From: a virus
DNA: 46,059 nt
Strand: one strand, 5' to 3'
Virus genome (UHGV): UHGV-0171654
The notes beneath the pieces were generated by a model. It did no database searches. It was not told where the DNA came from and was given only the letters and a program-made list of their open reading frames with translations. Positions 852 to 12,952 of this stretch are shown here, one piece after another. The position numbers and the translations under genes are program-made. Each line of letters opens with the position of its first letter. Position 1 is the stretch's first letter.

Positions 852-3800
852 TTATGAGGGTAGTACAGCAGTCAGCAGGTGTGCCGGTTCTGCCGTGTAT
901 GGTTCGGTTGAGGTATCTGTACCTGTGTAACTCGGCCCGCGACTGAGCATAATCATGAGCTGGTTATGCTCCCGCGCGATAGACGTATTAACCACAAGCT
1001 CCTGCGCACCGGGGTTGTAGGTGCCTACCAGCCACTCAACCAGATTATCGGGATCGGTACAATCAACGGCTCGAATCTGATTTTCACGCCCCATCTGTGT
1101 TGTGTGATAGAGCATGAAAACGCGACCATAGCGGGACCGAGCCAGTACAGGACGGCTGGCAATCGGAACCAGGATATTCGTTGCGGTAATGACTGTAAAT
1201 TCATAGTCAGTGAGAATATCTGTGGCCCAACCCGAACCCGTCCAGCGGATACGCACAACCTGAGTGCGACCGTTTGCCTGATGCTGCCATATGACAGTCT
1301 GGAACCGGTTTTCGACGTCAGTGCAGGAGCCGCACTGGTTGACGTAGCCGGATGACTGCGCAATGTTTGCGATGCGCTCCGAGTTTGATTCAGTCATCGG
1401 CAGTGCAAAACTCGCAGACCCCGCTGCGCTGGTAAACGTCTGACCTTTATCCGCCGAGACCCCGTAGAACATCCCGTAGTTTGTGTCAGCATTCCCCGCG
1501 CTCTGACGATAGCCCCAGCAGAGATGCAATCTGTCGTTATCATCCACGACAATGCGCTGTTCATACGGGTTCGAGTCCGTTGCATCAATGATTTTTGTTT
1601 CATTGATAAACGTTTTCGTCGCATCGTCAAACGTTGACATGTAGTAAGCGCCATCGCCGGAACGACCTACACGATAAAACGCACAAACGGTGCCGTCAGA
1701 GAACGTGACGAATCGCGGATACGTGATAAGGTCAAATGCAGTAAAAGAAATCGCTTCCCATGCCGATATGTCGTGCGGGTTTGTGGTGATAGCCGCCCGG
1801 CATGGGTGCGCGTGCATATTGCCCGCAACAATTACGTATCCCTCTTTCGTCACGACTAGCGAAAACAGGTTGTGTCCGTCGGGTTCGTTCGGAGAGTGGA
1901 ACGGATTACCTGCAATCGTGCTGAGGTCAAATTTTTGCCACGCACCACCATAAATACTGCGCTGCAAAATCATCGGGTTTCGCCCCAGAGAGACACCCAC
2001 CACGTACACATAATCACCCGCAATAACAACGTTGTCCTGACTGACCGGGTTGAAATTGTAGTCGGCGTAGTTGTCCAGCTCGAACGGCAGGCGCTCAATT
2101 GTCGCCTGCATGCGGTTTTCCGGGACTGAACTCAGGGCGTTAACCCGACGAGCTAACACTGACTCCGGTTTAATTTTTTCTACTTTGTGGTCGTAGTATT
2201 GTGCCGCCGTCATTCGCACGCGAACATACACATATCCGTCCTGGGTTGCCGTGCCCTCAACAGAGGCGTCCACCAGTCGTCCTGCGTTAGTGAACGTTAC
2301 GAGAACACCGACGAAATTTTTGGACGCGTCACACTGAATTATCGGCGCATACGTTCCTGTTGTTGATAACGCCCCCAGCCAGCCACGCAGCCGGATAACA
2401 TCCCCGACCGAGACAGGGATGTAATAAGCCCACCATCTGCTGGCAGTAGTAATCGACCCATCGCTGTTCATCACCTGACCCTTCGTGAGAACCGCTTCAT
2501 CGCAGGTATAGTCCGCGATAACCCGACTATCCAGCCCCTGGGTTGCATCCAGTTCGTCTACGGATTCGCGGTATTCATCGCCGGGTGCGAACGTGGACAG
2601 TTTTTTAGAGAGGACAAACGGGCTGGTGCCGAGACGATGACGAATGGCAATATAACCGTCTTGCGTGGCCGTGGCCTCCAGTTCACGAACCACTATCGCT
2701 CTAGTAGAGGCCCAGTATGTGAGGACGGAAACGAAGTTTTTATTTTCGTCAACCTGGAACATCCATTCGGCATTTCCTGTGGAATTGACGCCGACAGGGC
2801 CGCGATATTTCACGCTATCGCCAGGTTTGGCGGGAACGTATAACGTAATAAACGACTCGGTTGCCGTCTTCGTCCCGTCTGCATTCAGAGCATAGAAAAT
2901 CCCAAATTCATTATCCTGGGATTTTGAGATATCAAAATATCCGAGGTTTTTTTCAATCATCCCCACCCGGTCAGAACTGGCAGCACCGCCGGACTGGTCT
3001 GCTGTTTCCTCCGTGAATGTCCGCGCCTTGCGTAACACGATGGAAAAATCCAGAATCCCTGACGCGTCGGATTTTCGCACGCGCACAGCGATAAAACCGT
3101 CCTGCGCAGCGATCGCCGTCATCGAACCGTCTTCGGTAACCCCTTTTGATACGTAATATTTCAACACAGAGACAACGTTTTTATCAGCATCGCACTGTAT
3201 CATCTGTGGGATTTGTTCATTGTACGGTGCGCTGCCCAGCTTCCCGGTGAAATCAACCGCCTGATGCTTCTTAACCGGGATGTAATACATTGAAAAAGCG
3301 GCCGCAGGAGTCGTTGTGCCATCGGCATTTAACACAATACCGTTAACTTCAGTGGCCAGTGGTACAGCATCAACGCCCTCATAGCCAAATAAAACAGAAT
3401 CAGTAGCGTAACCGGCAACCCCGCCAGCGACATCAATATCAGACTCAACCAGAATCGTTTTTTTACGCTGCGTCAGAGTGAATTCGGCCGTGTCTCGCAC
3501 TCTGACGTATATATAACCGTCCTGAGTAGCCGTCGCCGATAATGTGGATTTGTCGGTTGGACTCCCCGTTGAGGTCCAGTAGGCAAGCGGCGCGACGAAC
3601 GATTTGTTGTTGTCGAGCTGGATGAGATACGCCATCTCCTCACCCACCGTATTAGATCCCACCGTGCCGCTGTAAGTGAATGTCTCCCCCTCGCGCGCCT
3701 TGAGATAGTAAGCATCCCATGATGCATTTGACTGCGTAGAGCCGTCAGCATTAATAACCAACCCGGCCGTAATATCAGCAGCGCCTTTTGCGTCCACTGT

Positions 3801-4439
3801 CACGTAGCCGGTTGTCAGCGCAGTCATTGATGGCATCGCCCGCCCGGTAGCCGCCAGCGTGCCACCGTTATTGATGTACTCGTTAGCCAGAGTGCTGTCA
3901 GCAGAATCCCTTACCCAGCAATACCCACCGCTTAAAATATTTCCTGCGGTGACATCACTTTGCGCCGCGCTTAATGTTGCATACTCCCTTATGCTGTTAC
4001 TGATTGAACCTTGCCCGGGATACTCAGCAACCTCAGAAGCCACGCCGGCATTATTTTGGTAATATCGAAATGCCAGAACATTACCAACGCCCTGAGGAAC
4101 GCGGAAATATTGACCAGAAGTTGTCCCGGCAATACCGGCAGTGGTGTCGGCAAAGGTGAGCTTATTGTCGCCGAACTCTGCGGCGGTTGATGCGGAAGCC
4201 ACAGCCTCATCTCTTGCAACTCCCGCCTCTGTTGCATATTGCAGTGAGTTTTCTTCTGATGTAGCCGCGCTTTGCTTGGATAAAAGAGCTGAGCCAGCTG
4301 CATCCTGGGCTTGCTGGGCGGCAGCACTAGTATCCTGATATCCTTGCTCGGCTTCCAGCATGTATTGTTTGGCTTCTGCGGCGCTAACGGCGGCATCTGC
4401 TGCTAATTGAGCAGTTTTTTGCGTTTCGGTGGTTGTCAT
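852..4439 (-). CDS. tail spike/tail fiber protein (1195 aa): N-terminal fiber anchor, four tandem ~145-aa repeat modules, C-terminal Asp-box (BNR)-containing putative glycosidase/depolymerase domain
   Basis: Last gene of tail module. Internal repeats each ending in ATQDGY[IV]x[VI]R[VH]R (aa ~304, 445, 591, 731), with NADG and QCDAxKN motifs. C-terminal region contains S-A-D-K-G-Q-T-F, a canonical SxDxGxTW/F Asp-box. Confidence 0.8.
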   Translation of the reverse strand: MTTTETQKTAQLAADAAVSAAEAKQYMLEAEQGYQDTSAAAQQAQDAAGSALLSKQSAATSEENSLQYATEAGVARDEAVASASTAAEFGDNKLTFADTTAGIAGTTSGQYFRVPQGVGNVLAFRYYQNNAGVASEVAEYPGQGSISNSIREYATLSAAQSDVTAGNILSGGYCWVRDSADSTLANEYINNGGTLAATGRAMPSMTALTTGYVTVDAKGAADITAGLVINADGSTQSNASWDAYYLKAREGETFTYSGTVGSNTVGEEMAYLIQLDNNKSFVAPLAYWTSTGSPTDKSTLSATATQDGYIYVRVRDTAEFTLTQRKKTILVESDIDVAGGVAGYATDSVLFGYEGVDAVPLATEVNGIVLNADGTTTPAAAFSMYYIPVKKHQAVDFTGKLGSAPYNEQIPQMIQCDADKNVVSVLKYYVSKGVTEDGSMTAIAAQDGFIAVRVRKSDASGILDFSIVLRKARTFTEETADQSGGAASSDRVGMIEKNLGYFDISKSQDNEFGIFYALNADGTKTATESFITLYVPAKPGDSVKYRGPVGVNSTGNAEWMFQVDENKNFVSVLTYWASTRAIVVRELEATATQDGYIAIRHRLGTSPFVLSKKLSTFAPGDEYRESVDELDATQGLDSRVIADYTCDEAVLTKGQVMNSDGSITTASRWWAYYIPVSVGDVIRLRGWLGALSTTGTYAPIIQCDASKNFVGVLVTFTNAGRLVDASVEGTATQDGYVYVRVRMTAAQYYDHKVEKIKPESVLARRVNALSSVPENRMQATIERLPFELDNYADYNFNPVSQDNVVIAGDYVYVVGVSLGRNPMILQRSIYGGAWQKFDLSTIAGNPFHSPNEPDGHNLFSLVVTKEGYVIVAGNMHAHPCRAAITTNPHDISAWEAISFTAFDLITYPRFVTFSDGTVCAFYRVGRSGDGAYYMSTFDDATKTFINETKIIDATDSNPYEQRIVVDDNDRLHLCWGYRQSAGNADTNYGMFYGVSADKGQTFTSAAGSASFALPMTESNSERIANIAQSSGYVNQCGSCTDVENRFQTVIWQHQANGRTQVVRIRWTGSGWATDILTDYEFTVITATNILVPIASRPVLARSRYGRVFMLYHTTQMGRENQIRAVDCTDPDNLVEWLVGTYNPGAQELVVNTSIAREHNQLMIMLSRGPSYTGTDTSTEPYTAEPAHLLTAVLPS
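2205..3872 (-). repeat. Four tandem in-frame ~430-nt repeat modules inside the tail spike gene (protein-level tandem domain array)
   Basis: Recurring NADG...YY[IL]P...QCDA.KN.V.VL...ATQDGY..VRVR blocks at aa ~220-320, 360-460, 510-605, 650-745 of the encoded protein. Confidence 0.7.
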
Positions 4440-4448
4440 TTTTTATTC

Positions 4449-5492
4449 TCATGAATATTCATAAATTATCACGATGCCTTCTTTCCCCCGGGCGCCATTC
4501 ACTGCCGGAGAGGATGGTCCTTGTGAAGAACCAGATGCGCCTGAACCATATGCCTGCCCATCAATAGCCGGATCTCCAAATGATGGCACCCATCCCCCGC
4601 CTCCAAAAACGCTACTTGCCCCAGGTGATCCGAGGAATGACTGGGTTGCGTTAGCGTATGCAGGTGTAGAAGGTGCCCCTGGAGAGCCTATGATGTTGGC
4701 ACCAGACGGTGCGTTTGATGCGACATTACCCTGAGGAAGAAAAGGTGGATTTGCTGGTCCGGCAGATGGACCTCTTGTTCCGCCAGGTGCAACCATCAGC
4801 GATCCAAATGAGCTTGAACTACCAACAGAGCCAACTGGAGATGCTGCGGTCCCTCCCTGCCCGCCAGCGCCAACAACGATGCTAATGCTGGTGAAATTTA
4901 TTGAAAATCTACCCTTAGCATATGACCCGGCTCCACCACCTGAAACTATTGACACCTGCCCCGCTCCAGTGGCTGGGGCGGCGTCGCTCCCACCACCACC
5001 GCCAACCATTTCTACAACAACCGACTTTGTGCCCGGGGTCGGCGTATAGGTGCCGGATGATAAAAACGGCTGCACGTTCAGGAGTCGCCCGGATGAAAAG
5101 TTAATCCACCCAATACCGCCAGCATCAGGATTTGTCGTGTTATTTTCGATAGTGCTTTGCCAGAATCCATCCCTGGCTGAATTGATAAGAATTGCGCCTT
5201 TTGGGTATCCACCGATAGCTGCCGAAAATGCAGAGTCGAATGTATAGAAACCTCCGGCTTGCTCCCATTGAAGGCGGGTATAGGCATCATTAAAAATCCC
5301 ATTAAAATCCTGCCCCTTTGGCGGCTTACCGCCAGCAGATAGAGCGATGCGGGTCAGCGGAGGAAATCCTGAGTCCATCGCCGCAAGGCCATCAGCCAAC
5401 GTTTCAGAGGTGGAATTGACCGGGATCGTGTTTTTGTCGCCACTCGCAGAAAAAACAACCGTCAGACGTGACGGCATGGCTGAATTGTTCAA
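4449..5492 (-). CDS. tail fiber protein with glycine-rich (collagen-like/GGxGG) central region
   Basis: 347 aa; runs of GGGGGS, GGGAGS, GAGGQGG; positioned between baseplate genes and tail spike. Confidence 0.65.
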   Translation of the reverse strand: MNNSAMPSRLTVVFSASGDKNTIPVNSTSETLADGLAAMDSGFPPLTRIALSAGGKPPKGQDFNGIFNDAYTRLQWEQAGGFYTFDSAFSAAIGGYPKGAILINSARDGFWQSTIENNTTNPDAGGIGWINFSSGRLLNVQPFLSSGTYTPTPGTKSVVVEMVGGGGGSDAAPATGAGQVSIVSGGGAGSYAKGRFSINFTSISIVVGAGGQGGTAASPVGSVGSSSSFGSLMVAPGGTRGPSAGPANPPFLPQGNVASNAPSGANIIGSPGAPSTPAYANATQSFLGSPGASSVFGGGGWVPSFGDPAIDGQAYGSGASGSSQGPSSPAVNGARGKEGIVIIYEYS

Positions 5493-5493
5493 T

Positions 5494-6081
5494 TCAGACC
5501 TCCTGAACGATGTTTACTTTTACCCCTGGCGGGGAAGGAAGCGCGCCGGAGCTTTGCACTATGGCCAGCTCAGATTCGGAAAGTTGAAACTCGAATACGT
5601 AACTCATGACATGGTTGCCATCATCACGCACATAAGCTCGCCCGCTGGAGCCGAACATGTACATCAGCATGCGATTCATGACCGGCACAGTGCAGTCGCT
5701 GATGTTAGCCATCGCTTTGCACATGATCAGCTTGCGGTATGCGTCATTGGTCAGGACGACAGTGTTTGTGTCCTGTGCGCCGGTATAGAAAGGTGCCTGG
5801 TTAAAGGGTTGCGGATCGGTGAGTTCTGCCGGAGTGCTGGTCGCTTCGCCAAAGCCCAGAAACTGCTGGGATGGCGTCACGGTCAGCAAACGCCCTACAT
5901 CAACGATTTTACCCCAGCACATCAGACCGTAATCGCCACATGTCTCGATGTTGAATACGAGGTCATAGAACGTGTCTATCCAGTCCTCTGGCGCTACTGA
6001 AGCGTTAAAGGTATCAATCAGTGAGCGTAGGCTTGTTGAGTTCACGTACTGCGCGTAGATCGTCCAGTCGACATTATTCAC
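5494..6081 (-). CDS. phage tail/baseplate protein (gpI-like position; uncharacterised family)
   Basis: 195 aa ORF immediately downstream of baseplate J-like gene, 8-nt overlap. Confidence 0.5.
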   Translation of the reverse strand: MNNVDWTIYAQYVNSTSLRSLIDTFNASVAPEDWIDTFYDLVFNIETCGDYGLMCWGKIVDVGRLLTVTPSQQFLGFGEATSTPAELTDPQPFNQAPFYTGAQDTNTVVLTNDAYRKLIMCKAMANISDCTVPVMNRMLMYMFGSSGRAYVRDDGNHVMSYVFEFQLSESELAIVQSSGALPSPPGVKVNIVQEV

Positions 6082-7306
6082 TTACCGCCTCCGTTATGAT
6101 GTTTGTCGCATCGAGAGTCGGTTCCTGATCAATGCCCATGGTCAGCGCACTAGACCAGGTTGTTCCATCCAGGGATATCTGGACCGAAAGAACGTTCATG
6201 TTCTGCGCATCGAGCGCCTGGATAGGGCCGATATACCGGCTGCCATAAATTCGCGCGCCGGCACGCGCCCGGGTGCCACCATCTGCGCCGGTGAAGGAAT
6301 TCAGGACGACCGCTCTGATCTGCGCGTTGATATCTGACGGAAGGCCATCATTCTCTTCGTATTCCACCTTGATATGAACGCTCACCGCATCCAGCGTTTT
6401 CCACCTGTAGGTGTACTCCGGATAAGGGGCGTCATAATTTTCGGTATCCTGCACGGTCCCAGTGGTGTCACCGTTCATAACGGTGCCCGGGGGAAGTTTT
6501 TTATTGATGGCCGCTGCAATGTCAGCCACTGCTCCGCCATAAACCCCGATATAAATCGAGCTGGCCAGCAGCGTGTAATTCGTGGAACCTTTCTCGACGG
6601 AAGTCGGCTCTTTGTTGTCGATCACATAAACATCAAGCACCCCGTCGACTTCCAGGACAGCAGCCCGCACAGCAGCTGCCGTGTTGAAGGCGTTACGCGC
6701 TACCGACTGACGGCGCCGATACTCAAAGGCAGATCGCCCTTCCACATTTGATCCCGGAACGCCTGCGGTCTCGTTGGTAATGCTCGACCAGCCACTTACC
6801 GCAACATAGATGTTTGTCAGCGTCCCGATTGGGCAGGCTATCGGCCCGGTAGTCAGGTTCTGGAACTCGATTTTTACCGTCCCGTCTGCGCCTATCGTTC
6901 CGGCCGCCAAAGACACGTACATATAGCCGTTATCGTCGGTTGCATAGGACTGTGCGGGAATTACCGTTCCCGGCACGCCGGAGCATGTGGCCGTTACAAC
7001 CGTGCCCGCCGCAGCAATGCGGTCGAGGAAGTAAATCCTGCCGATGCCATCCTGAAATCTGCCGGAAGAAAAGTCCGGGTTCATGTTGTTGACGATAGCC
7101 AGAAGCTGATCGTTTTTGTCAGCGATGATTGCAGTATCAGTGACAGCCAGTTGCCCCTGCGGCGTCTTGAGGTTCATGCTCATCGCCGTCCCGAATGCAG
7201 AACCAATATCTGCTATACGCCCGGCAAGAATGTCTCCCTCATCTGGAACATCAAGGCCAGTGGTGGAAAAGGTCACGGCCGGTACCGCCGTAGAGATTGT
7301 CGTCAT
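6074..7306 (-). CDS. baseplate J-like protein
   Basis: ~410 aa; start chosen at MTTISTAV preceded by GAGGAAAAAATG RBS; conserved position after gpW-like gene; composition typical of Baseplate_J family. Confidence 0.7.
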   Translation of the reverse strand: MTTISTAVPAVTFSTTGLDVPDEGDILAGRIADIGSAFGTAMSMNLKTPQGQLAVTDTAIIADKNDQLLAIVNNMNPDFSSGRFQDGIGRIYFLDRIAAAGTVVTATCSGVPGTVIPAQSYATDDNGYMYVSLAAGTIGADGTVKIEFQNLTTGPIACPIGTLTNIYVAVSGWSSITNETAGVPGSNVEGRSAFEYRRRQSVARNAFNTAAAVRAAVLEVDGVLDVYVIDNKEPTSVEKGSTNYTLLASSIYIGVYGGAVADIAAAINKKLPPGTVMNGDTTGTVQDTENYDAPYPEYTYRWKTLDAVSVHIKVEYEENDGLPSDINAQIRAVVLNSFTGADGGTRARAGARIYGSRYIGPIQALDAQNMNVLSVQISLDGTTWSSALTMGIDQEPTLDATNIITEAVSE

Positions 7307-7735: not shown

Positions 7736-8392
7736 TTAATACATTGATTTGATCTGCGTGGTGCCGTCCGCAATACCGTACTTGCTCATTTTCCAGCAAG
7801 CCTCAGCAACCTGGATTATCTGGTATCGCATTTCAGGGCCAATTCCTTCTGTTAGGCTGATATTCTGTTTCATCAATTCCAAAGAAACGCCAGATCTCTC
7901 AGCCTCGCCTGCCGCCCGGCACATACGCCTTACCCCAGCGTCAGAATCAGCCTGCTGGTATGGATATCGGGCCATTAGAGAATAGTAGACATTATTTAAA
8001 GTGTAAGATGCGGAATCGATCTCACGCTTGGCCATGCACTCTTTACTAGCCTGACACTCAGCTTCTTTTTGCTTGGCTAATTCTTCATTTTCTTTTTTCT
8101 GCTGCTCTATCTGCCGCTGATACATCAAGTCGTGAAATAGGTCATTGTACCTATTGAAATAGCATTTATTATCTTTCCTACAATCGCTTGTATCTTGATC
8201 AGGAAGATTTTTACCAGTCACATTTCTATAAATTTCTCGCAAATCAGAAACGGACTGCAGGCCTCCAGAGTTCGTGGAAAATTTTGCCTTATCGAAGTTA
8301 TTTGATTTTTGATAATTAATATATTCCGCTGGCGACATTGCACATCCCGCCAAAGAAAACGAAATCATGAGAAGAAAAGACTTTTTTATCAT
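7736..8392 (-). CDS. putative lipoprotein (218 aa), low-GC moron inserted between baseplate genes
   Basis: Signal peptide plus lipobox (LMISFSLAGC); markedly AT-rich relative to flanks; own terminator downstream. Confidence 0.7.
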   Translation of the reverse strand: MIKKSFLLMISFSLAGCAMSPAEYINYQKSNNFDKAKFSTNSGGLQSVSDLREIYRNVTGKNLPDQDTSDCRKDNKCYFNRYNDLFHDLMYQRQIEQQKKENEELAKQKEAECQASKECMAKREIDSASYTLNNVYYSLMARYPYQQADSDAGVRRMCRAAGEAERSGVSLELMKQNISLTEGIGPEMRYQIIQVAEACWKMSKYGIADGTTQIKSMY

Positions 8393-8394
8393 TG

Positions 8395-8982
8395 TTACGG
8401 CTCCAGAGGATTTGTGCGGCTTCCTCCAGATTCTACCCCGCCGTGGTCGTGCCCATCAACGATTGAACCATCAACCAACTGCAATTTCCCGTTCGCGAGT
8501 ATCTTCAGGCCATTGATGTTAACCACGCCGGGGCTTTTGATGTTTATGCCGCTGCCGGTAAACTCTGCGTACTCAGTAGGATCGCCGTTCAGGCTAGCGA
8601 TAGCCGTGATGTAAACGGCATCTGAATACGAGTGCCTGCGCTGAGTTGGTGGCGGACCGCTTTGCCTTGATGCTCTGACATTGGTTGTGTCTTTGTCACA
8701 GGCGATTACCAGACCAATATCACCGATGCGGGGAGTCATTTTTACAGCGCTATTACCTGCCTGATACCGAATGAATGGAATGTCATATACCTCCTGACAT
8801 TTAATCTCCCCACCGGATACGTTCGCCCCGCTCACAAGAGGGAGCACAGTCATAACGCCATCACCAACATCTTTAACCAGAACAATATCAGCAAAAACAT
8901 TGCCCTTTGATGCCGAGGCTATAAGCGACAAGATCGCATTCCCCTGACAGGAGATGTCAGAAGCTTTTTGGTTAGTTGCCAT
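8395..8982 (-). CDS. baseplate central spike protein (gpV-like)
   Basis: Start at MATNQKAS (GGGGATAGCAATG); C-terminal ...LKILANGKLQLVDGSIVDGHDHGG typical of gpV spike tips. Confidence 0.6.
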   Translation of the reverse strand: MATNQKASDISCQGNAILSLIASASKGNVFADIVLVKDVGDGVMTVLPLVSGANVSGGEIKCQEVYDIPFIRYQAGNSAVKMTPRIGDIGLVIACDKDTTNVRASRQSGPPPTQRRHSYSDAVYITAIASLNGDPTEYAEFTGSGINIKSPGVVNINGLKILANGKLQLVDGSIVDGHDHGGVESGGSRTNPLEP

Positions 8983-9841
8983 TGCTATCCCCGCCGATGA
9001 CAGATGCAGGAGACGCCACAACAAATGTCTCCCAAAGTCCACCAGGTACCTTACAAGACAAGTAGTGGGTTGTTCCCGCTTGTACCACCCACTCTCCGCT
9101 AGCATGTGGAAGCTCTGTTTCAAGAATGATCTTAGTGTTCAATTTTAGCGCCGGTGAATAAATGCACCTAAAGTTAATCCCCATCTCATAAAATATTGGA
9201 TAACCAATAAGCCCAGTGGCTGGAGAAATATACGGAACAACTGAATCCGACGGTGTTTTACCTGTGTAAATTGTGACAGTGCCAAAATCTATATCAACAG
9301 ATATGTTATGCGCTGCCGCAATTTTTAATATTTGCATTATAGCGTTGTCATCGAAATATGGATTTCGATGGGTAGCCTTGACGTCCACGTTAATGAACTT
9401 TAAACCAACTTTAAAGGCAAGAGCACGAATCATATCAGCCACATCAGCATCGCCACGAATGGACGTTGGCTCACATGGGATCAGGCGCTCCCTTCCGGCT
9501 GCCGCCGCAGTTATCTCAATCGGGGCATCCGGCATCTGGTTCAGGTTAATCCTGGCAGATGTTATTGACCCGGAAAAAACACGGGTATCACCGGCATAAA
9601 CGACGATTGAATTCTGTGCATACGCGATTATCTTTTGCGCGTTTGTCGTCAGCTTGGACATGTTTTCCAGGGAAAGTCCCCAGAGGCTAAGTTCAAGAAT
9701 GGTTCCGGTAGCGCCGCCAAAGGCAGATATAGCCGCTTCACACTTGAACCCCTTAACAGTCAGGGTGTCACCAGTATCGCCATCAAAAGTTCCATTGGCC
9801 AGCGTGAACGATACAGTAAGCTCTCTCTCCTTGTAACTCAT
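8972..9841 (-). CDS. baseplate/tail protein (hub-like, 289 aa)
   Basis: Position between tail protein genes and gpV-like spike; overlapping stop/start. Confidence 0.45.
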   Translation of the reverse strand: MSYKERELTVSFTLANGTFDGDTGDTLTVKGFKCEAAISAFGGATGTILELSLWGLSLENMSKLTTNAQKIIAYAQNSIVVYAGDTRVFSGSITSARINLNQMPDAPIEITAAAAGRERLIPCEPTSIRGDADVADMIRALAFKVGLKFINVDVKATHRNPYFDDNAIMQILKIAAAHNISVDIDFGTVTIYTGKTPSDSVVPYISPATGLIGYPIFYEMGINFRCIYSPALKLNTKIILETELPHASGEWVVQAGTTHYLSCKVPGGLWETFVVASPASVIGGDSNGN

Positions 9842-10143
9842 CTGCCTACCTCACTGCTCGTCGCATAATACAGCTTGAATCTGGTGCCTATTTCGTCGTA
9901 ATACGGATCGGCTGTGCCTTTCGAGTCAACGAAAACCAGATCGCCACTGAAACCCAGATATTTATACCGAACCAGGTAAACGCAGTTCAGGCAGAGAACA
10001 CCCTGAAATATCGGCTTGTCATCGACATACAGATCGGCGTAAAACCCGGTTGATCGCTGATGCAACTTGATAGCGCAGTTCTGGCCGCCAAGCGTGACAT
10101 ACACCTTTTGGGATAGTGACGGCGATAAGCTAATTTCCTGCAT
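9838..10143 (-). CDS. hypothetical tail-module protein (101 aa)
   Basis: ATGA-type overlap with neighbours, same operon. Confidence 0.45.
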   Translation of the reverse strand: MQEISLSPSLSQKVYVTLGGQNCAIKLHQRSTGFYADLYVDDKPIFQGVLCLNCVYLVRYKYLGFSGDLVFVDSKGTADPYYDEIGTRFKLYYATSSEVGR

Positions 10144-10987: not shown

Positions 10988-12952
10988 TTATTGTCCTGAG
11001 TAGCCAGCCAAAAGCATGACACGGTTGTCGCCGTGCTTTTTGATGTCGCTGGTAAGCTGTTCCACGTTCTGGGCCTGGGTGGTGATTTTGGTGCCATAAA
11101 ACTGATAAGTCGCACCGGACTGTCCGGGCATTGCGCGGTCTACGGCCATCCCGGCGCCAGGGCGCATTCCGGCCATGACTTTAGGGACGTAATTGCGAGT
11201 TTCCGACGGCAGGTTACCCATGCCTTTCTTCTGGACGTTTCCGAGCCCCCAGTTATAGGAGGCAAGAGTTTTTTCCAGGTCGCCACCGGTAGCATCCAGC
11301 AGATAGCGCAGGTATCTTGCAGCGGCATCAGCTGACTTGTGGGGGTCATAAACGTCCATCCCCTTCAAACCCAAGTCTCTGGCAGTTCCATCCATAAACT
11401 GGAATGGGCCTTTCGCCCCTTTAGGGGATACTGCGAACGGGTCGCCACCTGATTCAGTACCAGCCACCGAAGACAGCAGCCGGGCGGGGAGTCCATATTT
11501 ACCTTCCAGCGCCCCGAATTCGCCAGCCATCGCCTGAAGAAATGCCTTTCCTTTGGCGCCAAGGCGAGCGGCCTGCGCGTTAAGCGGGACGTTTGACTGG
11601 TATCCCGAGGTATCTGGCTGCATTGTTGCCGCGCCAGCTGGAGAGATCAGGGCGTCAGCGATTTTTGAAAGGAGATTTTTGGTGCTTTCCCAGTAGTCTC
11701 TTTCATCCTGCTGCTGCCGACGCTGTTCAGGAAGTGGCTGAAACTTAACAGCATCAAGCATTTTTTGCGTTGCCTGCTGCTGCGGGCTTAGATACGCAGA
11801 GTCCTGATCAGGTTTAAAATCCAGTGTGCCGCCGTTTTTCTTCAGCGCCTGCTCGGCTGCCCTGGTCACTCCGGGCAGCGCATCATTACCGGTAGGCTTT
11901 CCGTCTTCAGTGCCGTACCACGCCTTTTTAAACTCATCGGCAGCCTTGGAGAAGTTGCCGTTATTGAGCTCGTTTAAAGCGTTACCCAGGTGGTTTAGCA
12001 CTTTTCCGAGCATGGAAAAGTTATCTTTGAGGTTGCGCAGATCGCCTGATAGCGTCCAGCTACCAAGGTCAATACCAGTAATGTCGTTAATGTCCCGCTT
12101 CAGCTCTTTGAAGAATGAAGAGGATTTTGCGTTACCAGACGACCACTCAATGAGGAGGCCATTCAGATCGCGAATGGTTGGTATCAATCCCACGTAAATC
12201 TGGTTTTTTACCGTGTCGAGATTTTGCCCCAGCTCCGCCCATGCGGCTGTAAATTCCTTTGCGCCTTTGGTTGAGGCATCTGTAATGCCGGAGCTTTTAG
12301 TCAGCCGGTCAACATCAGTTAGGAATTTTCCTTCCTGATTGCGCTGGTTGATAGCGTCATCAATACCAACCAACTGAAGAATCTGACGGCGGATATCTGG
12401 ATCGGTAACCTTCCTTGCCGACTCCAGTATTTTCCTGAACGTGGTTTGTGCTGAGTCGTCCCTGATGTTGAAAGAATCATGGGTCAGTGAATTAAGCCGG
12501 ATTGCTGCTTCCTGCACTGGCGTATCGTACACTCCGACCTTGGCCAGTTGCTTTGCATTCTGAAATCCCTGCAATGCTGCACTTATTTTCTCGACAGAAC
12601 TACCGGCCGCCTCTGCCGCCTTACCCACGCCGTCAAGCTCTTTGGCTGTCATCCCCAGCGATTTAGCCTGAATGGACAACTCCATCAGTCCGGAGGTGGT
12701 GCTTTTCACAAAGCTCATCAGGCCGCCGGCCGTGACGGTAACGCCAGTAAGTGCCAGAAGTTCCGTCTTTATGCTGCTGAAGAACGAAGCAGCTTTCTTG
12801 CCCTGCTCTGCCATTTCTTTGGCGGTGTTTTTGGCGTCCTCGCGCTGCTTTTTCAGGTCGTCACTGACTTCCTGCTGGCCTTTGCGGAACTGAGAAGTAT
12901 CAAGGCCCAGCGTCACCAGGAGGGCGTCAATTACCGTTGCTGCCATGATCAC
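10988..12952 (-). CDS. tail tape measure protein with C-terminal soluble lytic transglycosylase (SLT) domain
   Basis: 654 aa, alpha-helical N-terminal region; SLT motifs GTESGGDPFAVSPKGAKGPFQFM ... ASYNWG at aa ~480-620 (nt ~11093-11521). Confidence 0.8.
   Translation of the reverse strand: MIMAATVIDALLVTLGLDTSQFRKGQQEVSDDLKKQREDAKNTAKEMAEQGKKAASFFSSIKTELLALTGVTVTAGGLMSFVKSTTSGLMELSIQAKSLGMTAKELDGVGKAAEAAGSSVEKISAALQGFQNAKQLAKVGVYDTPVQEAAIRLNSLTHDSFNIRDDSAQTTFRKILESARKVTDPDIRRQILQLVGIDDAINQRNQEGKFLTDVDRLTKSSGITDASTKGAKEFTAAWAELGQNLDTVKNQIYVGLIPTIRDLNGLLIEWSSGNAKSSSFFKELKRDINDITGIDLGSWTLSGDLRNLKDNFSMLGKVLNHLGNALNELNNGNFSKAADEFKKAWYGTEDGKPTGNDALPGVTRAAEQALKKNGGTLDFKPDQDSAYLSPQQQATQKMLDAVKFQPLPEQRRQQQDERDYWESTKNLLSKIADALISPAGAATMQPDTSGYQSNVPLNAQAARLGAKGKAFLQAMAGEFGALEGKYGLPARLLSSVAGTESGGDPFAVSPKGAKGPFQFMDGTARDLGLKGMDVYDPHKSADAAARYLRYLLDATGGDLEKTLASYNWGLGNVQKKGMGNLPSETRNYVPKVMAGMRPGAGMAVDRAMPGQSGATYQFYGTKITTQAQNVEQLTSDIKKHGDNRVMLLAGYSGQ

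Follow-up and report, generated by a model that had tools for sequence, protein, structure and literature searches.

The final gene of the late/tail operon in UHGV virus genome UHGV-0171654, a temperate Klebsiella myovirus, encodes a tail spike of 1195 amino acids (aa) that combines an N-terminal anchor, four tandem repeats, and a C-terminal seven-bladed β-propeller of the BNR_4 family. The whole stretch of 46,059 nucleotides (nt) that was analyzed is referred to below as the window. The propeller groups with the GH145 and PL42 enzymes and retains the catalytic residues of their anterior site. This protein is best viewed as the distal receptor-binding tail spike of the phage, in which an interchangeable anchor and a repeat stalk would carry a metal-independent polysaccharide lyase acting through the anterior pocket of the propeller, a reading to which we assign a probability of roughly two in three. 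Phage spikes that degrade capsules are already known; what is new here is a phage spike with a PL42/GH145-type propeller, predicted to be a lyase, mounted on a stalk of rare repeats.

The C-terminal domain is a GH145/PL42-type propeller

The C-terminal part of the spike matches the Pfam family BNR_4 (PF15892) over aa 821 to 1073 with an E value of 1.2e-37 (130.2 bits versus a cutoff of 27.3). In sequence searches of the PDB, it retrieves the Bacteroides GH145 proteins (5MUK, 4IRT, 5MUM, and 5MVH; E values of 1e-26 to 1e-22) and FoRham1 of the PL42 family (7ESK, 7ESL, and 7ESN; E value of 1e-16), along with weak matches to the PL24 and PL25 ulvan lyases. A profile made from 39 homologues recognizes 5muk and FoRham1 (7esl) with E values of 1e-98 and 2e-81, respectively. 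The fold, which is taken from a predicted structure (AF2 model of aa 756 to 1195, pLDDT 89.8, pTM 0.89), comprises 28 strands. In Foldseek comparisons, the best matches of this model are GH145 proteins, with TM-scores on the target (TMt) of 0.89 to 0.90, followed by PL42 (TM-scores of 0.79 to 0.82), PL25 (0.68 to 0.70), and PL24 (∼0.6); for the GH145/PL42 crystal structures overall, the scores are 0.77 to 0.82 on the query and 0.82 to 0.90 on the target. The Pfam match, the PDB sequence matches, the model, and the order of the Foldseek matches together identify this domain as a seven-bladed propeller of the GH145/PL42 type and not as a sialidase. All four families, GH145, PL42, PL25, and PL24, cleave bonds between rhamnose (Rha) and uronate.

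A preliminary description of this gene, made from the sequence alone, had proposed a sialidase-like BNR propeller. The BNR propeller has been borne out, but its GH33-like character has not, as the domain falls into the seven-bladed BNR_4 group of GH145 and PL42 and carries a lyase set of residues. The C terminus did not turn out to be a nonenzymatic β-helix or a fibre devoid of catalytic residues, which would have spoken against the enzymatic view: it models as a propeller with an intact site. The canonical Asp-box SADKGQTF lies exactly where it had been placed (nt 1434 to 1457) and aligns with the SFDNGVTW and SNDDGKTW sequences of BT3686 and FoRham1, respectively. Given the composition of the protein, ∼0.008 such matches would be expected by chance, and 171 of 20,000 shuffled sequences contained at least one. 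The second, degenerate Asp-box of the same description was not recovered with relaxed patterns, which returned only the loose strings SDGTVC (aa 914) and SGDGAYY (aa 927). The propeller contains no FRIP motif; the protein has a single [FY]R[IVL]P string, which is located in the anchor at aa 112.

Predicted active site and mechanism

The anterior site of FoRham1 has been defined by structures and by the mutants H85A/F, H105A/F, Y150A, and R220A (Kondo et al., PMC8377490). It uses His85 as the base/acid, His105 as a helper, and Arg166 as the neutralizer and binds its substrate through Tyr150, Ser170, Tyr202, Arg220, Asn275, Gln276, Arg331, and Glu381; a quantum mechanics/molecular mechanics study added Asp83 to this site. 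This anterior lyase site is shared by the GH145 enzymes of Bacteroides, and the H90A, Y143F, and R333A variants of BT3686 are inactive; those family members that lack the posterior His48 show only lyase activity and no rhamnosidase activity (Munoz-Munoz et al., PMC8406133).

Residue equivalences established with hmmalign show that Asp854, His856, His876, Tyr907, Arg923, Ser927, Tyr959, Arg978, Asn1034, Gln1035, Arg1096, and Glu1147 of the spike are all identical to their reference counterparts. This list includes the entire experimentally validated anterior-site set (Asp854, His856, His876, Tyr907, Arg923, Arg978, and Arg1096) and six of the seven residues of subsites −1/+1 (Ser927, Tyr959, Arg978, Asn1034, Gln1035, and Glu1147). 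The differences from the FoRham1 site are limited to the replacement of Tyr26 by Val799 and of Pro223, a main-chain contact, by Ala981. Counted over 13 side-chain residues of the FoRham1 active site, 11 are identical in the spike. In the alignment of 39 sequences, Asp854, His856, His876, Tyr907, Arg923, Tyr959, Arg978, and Asn1034 are invariant. Across 63 BNR_4 domains, the first seven of these residues are retained in 62, the exception being a gap, and Asn1034 is retained in 61. The column that corresponds to the GH145 posterior catalytic His48 is variable, with Ala as the most common residue in the repeat-bearing homologues and Ala807 in the spike itself.

With the anterior residues kept and His48 replaced by Ala807, the best-supported mechanism is a syn β-elimination at a 4-O-substituted glucuronate (GlcA), most likely one that belongs to the Klebsiella capsule. 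The lyase activity, the Rha-GlcA specificity, and the capsule as a substrate are predicted, as are the oligomeric state of the spike and the role of its repeats. In the proposed scheme, the anchor (aa 1 to ∼205) would plug into the baseplate, and the repeat stalk would most likely let the spike reach farther and/or attach to polysaccharide. Arg923 would neutralize the carboxylate of the 4-O-substituted glucuronate, and His856, helped by Asp854 and His876, would take H-5 and protonate the leaving O-4, while the uronate and the departing sugar would be held by Tyr907, Tyr959, Arg978, Asn1034/Gln1035, and Arg1096/Glu1147. The reaction is expected to yield a 4,5-unsaturated uronate and to set free a sugar or chain. 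Either the host capsule or a different surface polysaccharide would serve as the substrate, and its cleavage or trimming could open the way to the outer membrane. In every characterized relative, the departing sugar is an α-L-rhamnose linked 1→4 to the uronate.

Several observations weigh against this assignment. The characterized relatives are exo-acting enzymes that remove caps from plant arabinogalactan and are not capsule depolymerases (PMC8377490, PMC8406133), and the Tyr26 that contacts rhamnose in FoRham1 is the residue replaced by Val799. A literature search did not find activity data for phage homologues of the propeller. Neither DepoCatalog, with its 129 produced enzymes, nor a 2024 review of depolymerases lists any propeller, BNR, PL42, or GH145 protein; in these two sources, every Klebsiella depolymerase with a solved structure is a β-helix, the K1, K47, and K64 lyases among them, and none of those characterized structurally or biochemically is a propeller. 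The available review of K antigens gives their composition without linkages. As for the stalk, the PDB matches of the modeled repeat to carbohydrate-binding modules (CBMs) are weak, with a best E value of 5e-3 and TM-scores of 0.26 to 0.39.

Alternative views of the propeller

A propeller with a canonical Asp-box could be taken for a GH33 sialidase-like hydrolase that would strip the capsule or O-antigen of sialic or other nonulosonic acids, particularly as the depositors of the homologous structures 5muk and 4irt labeled them "neuraminidase" or "putative neuraminidase." However, those labels are older than the biochemical work that demonstrated Rha-GlcA activity, and the domain has seven blades (28 strands) instead of six, no GH33 match in Pfam, and a single Asp-box where GH33 enzymes have three to five, with its only FRIP-like string in the N-terminal anchor. 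The first GH33 sialidase (8feb) appears at rank 48 of the Foldseek output with TM-scores of 0.44/0.39, compared to 0.8 to 0.9 for GH145 and PL42. The sialidase assignment was rejected on this fold and residue evidence, and its probability is negligible. Only slightly less improbable is a retaining α-L-rhamnosidase that would work through the posterior site, in the manner of BT3686 acting on gum arabic. The best structural and sequence matches of the spike are indeed GH145 proteins, but the posterior His48 is essential for that activity, and its column is mostly Ala in the repeat-bearing homologues; moreover, GH145 enzymes without this residue keep the lyase activity and not the rhamnosidase activity. 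The posterior hydrolase was rejected because of Ala807.

Alternatively, the propeller might be a noncatalytic, lectin-like domain that does nothing but bind surface glycans. Seven-bladed Photorhabdus lectins are distant fold neighbors (TM-score of ∼0.5), and Concha-Eloko et al. have pointed out that phage propellers may have functions beyond catalysis. However, the full set of acid/base, neutralizer, and helper residues is invariant, including in the phage-borne copies, which would be unexpected in a domain used for binding alone, and in sibling spikes this anchor bears bona fide enzymes. A purely lectin-like role is thus improbable, albeit less so than either hydrolase.

Within the lyase assignment, a more specific and rather unlikely scenario can be put forward. 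It holds that the proteins described as "n-bladed β-propeller" receptor-binding proteins of Klebsiella phages and prophages are, in part, PL42/GH145-type lyases recruited from plant glycan catabolism. The present spike would then act in the exo mode, stripping terminal Rha from GlcA side chains and leaving an unsaturated uronate, and its four modules would provide multivalent and possibly processive binding to the capsule. Such an exo mode would amount to editing or debranching of the capsule rather than its depolymerization and would parallel the deacetylating SGNH spikes that share the same anchor. It would also give PL42/GH145 its first substrate from a bacterial capsule and phages a new way of penetrating capsules.

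Four tandem repeats form a probable stalk

The four tandem repeats (R1 to R4) that had been noted between the anchor and the propeller are real. Their N[AS]DG anchor motifs are spaced by 141, 148, and 139 aa, and all six pairwise comparisons give Smith-Waterman scores of 142 to 185, compared to ∼29 ± 5 for shuffled partners (z values of 24 to 30), at 35 to 40% identity. A hidden Markov model (HMM) built from the four sequences finds each unit with E values of 1e-52 to 1e-58. It took the Smith-Waterman comparison with shuffling and the HMM to reveal the repeats, as a self-BLASTP of the spike returned only the identity match. Their span, previously given as nt 2205 to 3872, lies ∼10 aa upstream of the true bounds at nt 2175 to 3842. 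The motifs that had been listed as present in each copy hold as a consensus, as each is exact in only two or three of the four copies: NADG in three (with NSDG in the fourth), YYIPV in two, QCDAxKN in two, and ATQDGY in three (with AAQDGF in the remaining one).

None of the four units matches any Pfam family at an E value of ≤0.01 when searched singly; PPC (E value of 0.4) and DraK_HK_N (E value of 0.015) are noise. Likewise, no match to a described CBM family of Pfam or CAZy was detected for any of them. The AF2 model of aa 335 to 480, which covers R2 and was built from 29 aligned units, is an eight-stranded β-sandwich (pLDDT 82.5, with a core above 90), in which the polar motifs N-x-D-G, Q-x-D-x-x-K, and A-T-Q-D-G are located at the junctions of strands and loops. 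Its fold neighbors in the PDB are almost all β-jelly-roll CBMs (CBM22, 4, 35, 6, 29, and 36 and modules that bind hyaluronan or porphyran). The BFVD neighbors (TM-scores of 0.5 to 0.58, E values of 1e-5 to 1e-3) belong, as accessory modules, to SGNH esterases of phages, a CenC-like CBM protein, tail fibres, and the crAss001 "tail hyaluronidase/tail fiber." The model thus weakly resembles carbohydrate-binding or accessory modules, and the earlier view of the repeats as CBMs can be retained as far as the β-sandwich and its CBM and accessory neighbors go, but not at the level of membership in a CBM family. Judging from this model, the repeats most likely form a CBM-like stalk that would provide reach and possibly multivalent binding.

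It is quite possible, at a little less than even odds, that the repeats are purely structural spacers, which would determine spike length as a shaft without binding carbohydrates. The copy number, which varies from 1 to 5 among the homologues, would fit such a role, as would the lack of a Pfam or CAZy CBM match, the weakness of the PDB fold matches to CBMs, and the fact that R1 travels with the anchor across spikes with different distal domains. On the other hand, the polar motifs are kept across copies that share just 25 to 40% identity, which suggests a conserved site. The identity of the neighbors also argues against a mere spacer, as those in the PDB are nearly all CBMs and the viral ones come from carbohydrate esterases and hyaluronidase-type tail proteins, where they serve as accessory modules.

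When 1.84 billion cluster representatives were searched with a profile, the repeat module was found in 54 proteins at an E value of ≤1e-3 and in 27 at ≤1e-10, so it can be considered rare. It occurs in one to five tandem copies and in many of these proteins directly precedes the BNR_4 propeller, including a prophage protein of Acinetobacter baumannii. R1 to R4 pair one-to-one with the units of the homologue P0002 at 74 to 87% identity; being only 30 to 45% identical among themselves, they are old duplications. A second group of relatives (P0004, P0008 to P0017, and P0164) has five repeats followed by a distal domain of ∼560 aa (e.g., aa 807 to 1370 in P0010) that has no Pfam match and no PDB sequence match at an E value of ≤1; this domain is a putative alternative "warhead" on the same stalk. 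R1 is 70 to 76% identical to the first unit of these five-repeat proteins, in which R2 to R4 have no orthologues. With a counterpart for R1 and none for R2 to R4, there seems to be a mosaic (recombination) junction just past R1, at the R1/R2 boundary, and the repeats may serve as exchange points. In the search of the representatives, positions 55 to 106 of the repeat profile were also matched by 23 stretches of the giant protein P0185 (5384 aa), possibly a remote relative in which the module has been iterated many times; a local HMM search found no domain in this protein at an i-E value of <1e-3.

N-terminal anchor and genomic setting

The N-terminal region has no match in Pfam or among the sequences of the PDB, but it is common in Klebsiella. 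In a collection of 5.8 billion proteins, aa 1 to 205 are found at 65 to 95% identity in hundreds of Klebsiella prophage spike proteins, and this region also matches phrog_38670 and related families, as well as many Klebsiella phage tail spikes. The distal parts attached to the same anchor include SGNH esterases, sialate-O-acetylesterase-like domains, pectate-lyase-type β-helices, GH43, and BNR_4. Because this anchor recurs with differing distal enzymes, aa 1 to 205 can be regarded as an interchangeable anchor and the remainder of the protein as a specificity cassette. The anchor shared with other spikes and the position of the gene at the distal end of the tail/baseplate module confirm that the protein is a tail spike and a receptor-binding protein, as had been proposed.

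The window encodes an integrase, terminase, portal, capsid, sheath, tape measure with a lytic domain, hub, Baseplate_J wedge, DUF2612 protein, and Gly-rich fibre; the last three genes of this list are the upstream neighbors of the spike gene, whose ATG lies 10 nt past the stop codon of the preceding gene. The coordinates of the spike and its parts are listed in Table 1. The baseplate had been described as Mu-like, which is only loosely true of this sheath-bearing phage: the window matches the Pfam families Baseplate_J, DUF2612, and E217_GP41 but none of the models of Mu gp45, gp46, and gp48. The 95% identical spike P0001, from another prophage (contig L002), occupies the same gene position on a true Mu-type baseplate. 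The DNA of the structural module is ∼91 to 93% identical to that of Klebsiella phages ST15-VIM1phi2.1, RCIP0114, KpnBHU6, and others, which have a different spike beyond the common first ∼200 to 230 aa.

Table 1. Coordinates of the tail-spike gene and of the domains and residues discussed in the text
Feature	Position in the window (nt)	Strand	Residues (aa)	Remarks
Tail-spike gene	852..4439	−	1195 aa plus stop codon	From the list of open reading frames; both ends matched by PHROG families (tail fibre and unknown)
N-terminal anchor/adapter domain	3843..4439	−	1-199	Similarity extends to ~aa 205; first ~95 aa rich in Ala and Gln
Repeat R1	3462..3842	−	200-326	β-Sandwich module
Repeat R2	3039..3419	−	341-467	β-Sandwich module; unit chosen for modeling
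Repeat R3	2598..2975	−	489-614	
Repeat R4	2175..2570	−	624-755	
C-terminal seven-bladed BNR_4 β-propeller	855..2114	−	~776-1195	Predicted uronate lyase of the GH145/PL42 type
A807	2019..2021	−	807	Position of the GH145 posterior catalytic His48; His not kept
D854-G-H856	1872..1880	−	854-856	Predicted base/acid His (FoRham1 His85, BT3686 His90) and assisting Asp (FoRham1 Asp83)
H876	1812..1814	−	876	Predicted helper His (FoRham1 His105)
Y907	1719..1721	−	907	FoRham1 Tyr150, BT3686 Tyr143
R923	1671..1673	−	923	Predicted carboxylate neutralizer (FoRham1 Arg166)
Asp-box SADKGQTF	1434..1457	−	995-1002	Aligns with the family Asp-box
R1096	1152..1154	−	1096	FoRham1 Arg331, BT3686 Arg333

Several other genes in the vicinity of these spikes deserve mention. 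Downstream of the spike gene, the window contains two small genes on the same strand (nt 182 to 535 and 502 to 762), which encode a UmuD-like protein (phrog_3469, E value of 6e-43) and a phrog_3893 protein. Within the baseplate cluster, an open reading frame of 218 aa (nt 7736 to 8392, minus strand) has a lipoprotein-type signal (MIKKSFLLMISFSLAGC) and phrog_26209 as its sole match; it is located in the stretch of the window with the lowest GC content (0.463 at nt 8001 to 10000) and is a possible moron. The tail protein of 654 aa encoded at nt 10988 to 12952 (minus strand) combines tape-measure-like regions with regions that resemble lytic transglycosylases and endolysins (phrog_2013, "lytic tail protein," E value of 8e-217). 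On contig L002, a gene for a membrane protein of the EpsG family (PF14897; nt 11635 to 12849) is found directly downstream of P0001 on the opposite strand, at the edge of the prophage. EpsG proteins are similar to polysaccharide polymerases, and this gene could be a moron that modifies surface polysaccharides.

Relatives of the spike

Among 50,697 phage records, the sole cultured phage that combines the propeller with the repeats is Klebsiella phage MY01 (Schitoviridae; PP056534.1), whose propeller is 43.6% identical to that of the spike; two faecal contigs provide distant matches. The MY01 cassette is located at nt 3235 to 7242 of its sequence (L001). The presence of this cassette in both a lytic N4-like podovirus and a temperate myovirus indicates that it is exchanged between tail types that are unrelated. 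The literature searched contains no functional study of the MY01 spike and only a passing mention of the head fibre of this phage. A scan of species-representative genomes with the propeller gave no confirmed relatives. The public annotation of the homologues does not go beyond "BNR-4 repeat-containing protein" or "tail spike."

In Acinetobacter baumannii GCA_031157735.1 (contig L003, nt 8001 to 9590), a protein of 529 aa consists of a partial repeat and a BNR_4 propeller that is 46% identical to that of the spike. It is encoded in a Mu-like prophage with genes for Mu Gam, an rve transposase, and Mu gp45/gp46 baseplate proteins, where its gene has an unusual location, lying between the sheath gene and the repressor region instead of following the baseplate.

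Implications

Tail-spike enzymes decide which capsule types of Klebsiella a phage can infect and are being developed as antivirulence agents. The Klebsiella depolymerases characterized so far are all trimers of the β-helix type. In Klebsiella prophages, β-propellers account for 18% of the predicted "depolymerase" domains. The present analysis offers a testable chemistry for one such propeller, β-elimination at a 4-substituted glucuronate, probably within L-Rha-α-1,4-GlcA, and suggests bacterial capsules as a natural substrate class for the GH145 and PL42 enzymes, for which "other potential substrates ... remain to be identified" (PMC8406133). The analysis also defines a rare, previously undescribed repeat module that is found in one to five copies ahead of the propeller and seemingly marks a recombination junction.

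Comparison with known systems

The closest solved structures are those of the Bacteroides GH145 proteins BT3686, BACCELL_00856, BACINT_00347, and BACOVA_03493 (5MUK/5MUL, 5MVH, 5MUM, and 4IRT). The anterior lyase triad of BT3686, His90/Tyr143/Arg333, is conserved in the spike. BT3686 also has the posterior hydrolase site; BACCELL_00856, like the spike, lacks the posterior His48. These proteins are periplasmic or surface enzymes of polysaccharide utilization loci that act on dietary arabinogalactan proteins and, in contrast to the spike, have neither an anchor nor repeats. FoRham1, the L-rhamnose-α-1,4-D-glucuronate lyase of Fusarium oxysporum (PL42), has the same seven-bladed BNR_4 propeller (TM-score of 0.79 to 0.82) at only ∼18 to 19% identity. 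However, this fungal enzyme is secreted in free form and acts on gum arabic as an exo-enzyme that trims off the terminal Rha caps, whereas the propeller of the spike is fused to an anchor and four repeats. The PL24 and PL25 ulvan lyases (LOR_107 and PLSV_3936; 6BYP and 5UAM) share the superfold and the His/Tyr/Arg chemistry with the spike. They cleave Rha3S-(1→4)-uronate bonds inside the polymer (endo), so this fold is capable of depolymerization. However, their similarity to the spike is lower (TM-scores of 0.6 to 0.7, with sequence similarity confined to ∼140 residues), and they have deeper clefts and a sulfated algal substrate.

Among the phage proteins, the MY01 spike (WQY99723.1, annotated as "tail spike") combines the same propeller with at least two repeats of this type ahead of it but is 1335 aa long, has a different N-terminal region, and belongs to a lytic N4-like podovirus. 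K1-ORF34, K64-ORF41, and P560dep are virion lyases that catalyze β-elimination at GlcA of the Klebsiella capsule with sets of Tyr, His, and Arg residues; their fold is a trimeric right-handed β-helix, unlike the propeller of the spike. The endosialidase spikes of coliphages K1F and K1E (GH58) also display a β-propeller catalytic domain on an interchangeable anchor. However, that propeller is six-bladed and hydrolyzes polysialic acid, and these proteins also contain a lectin domain as an insertion and a chaperone at the C terminus.

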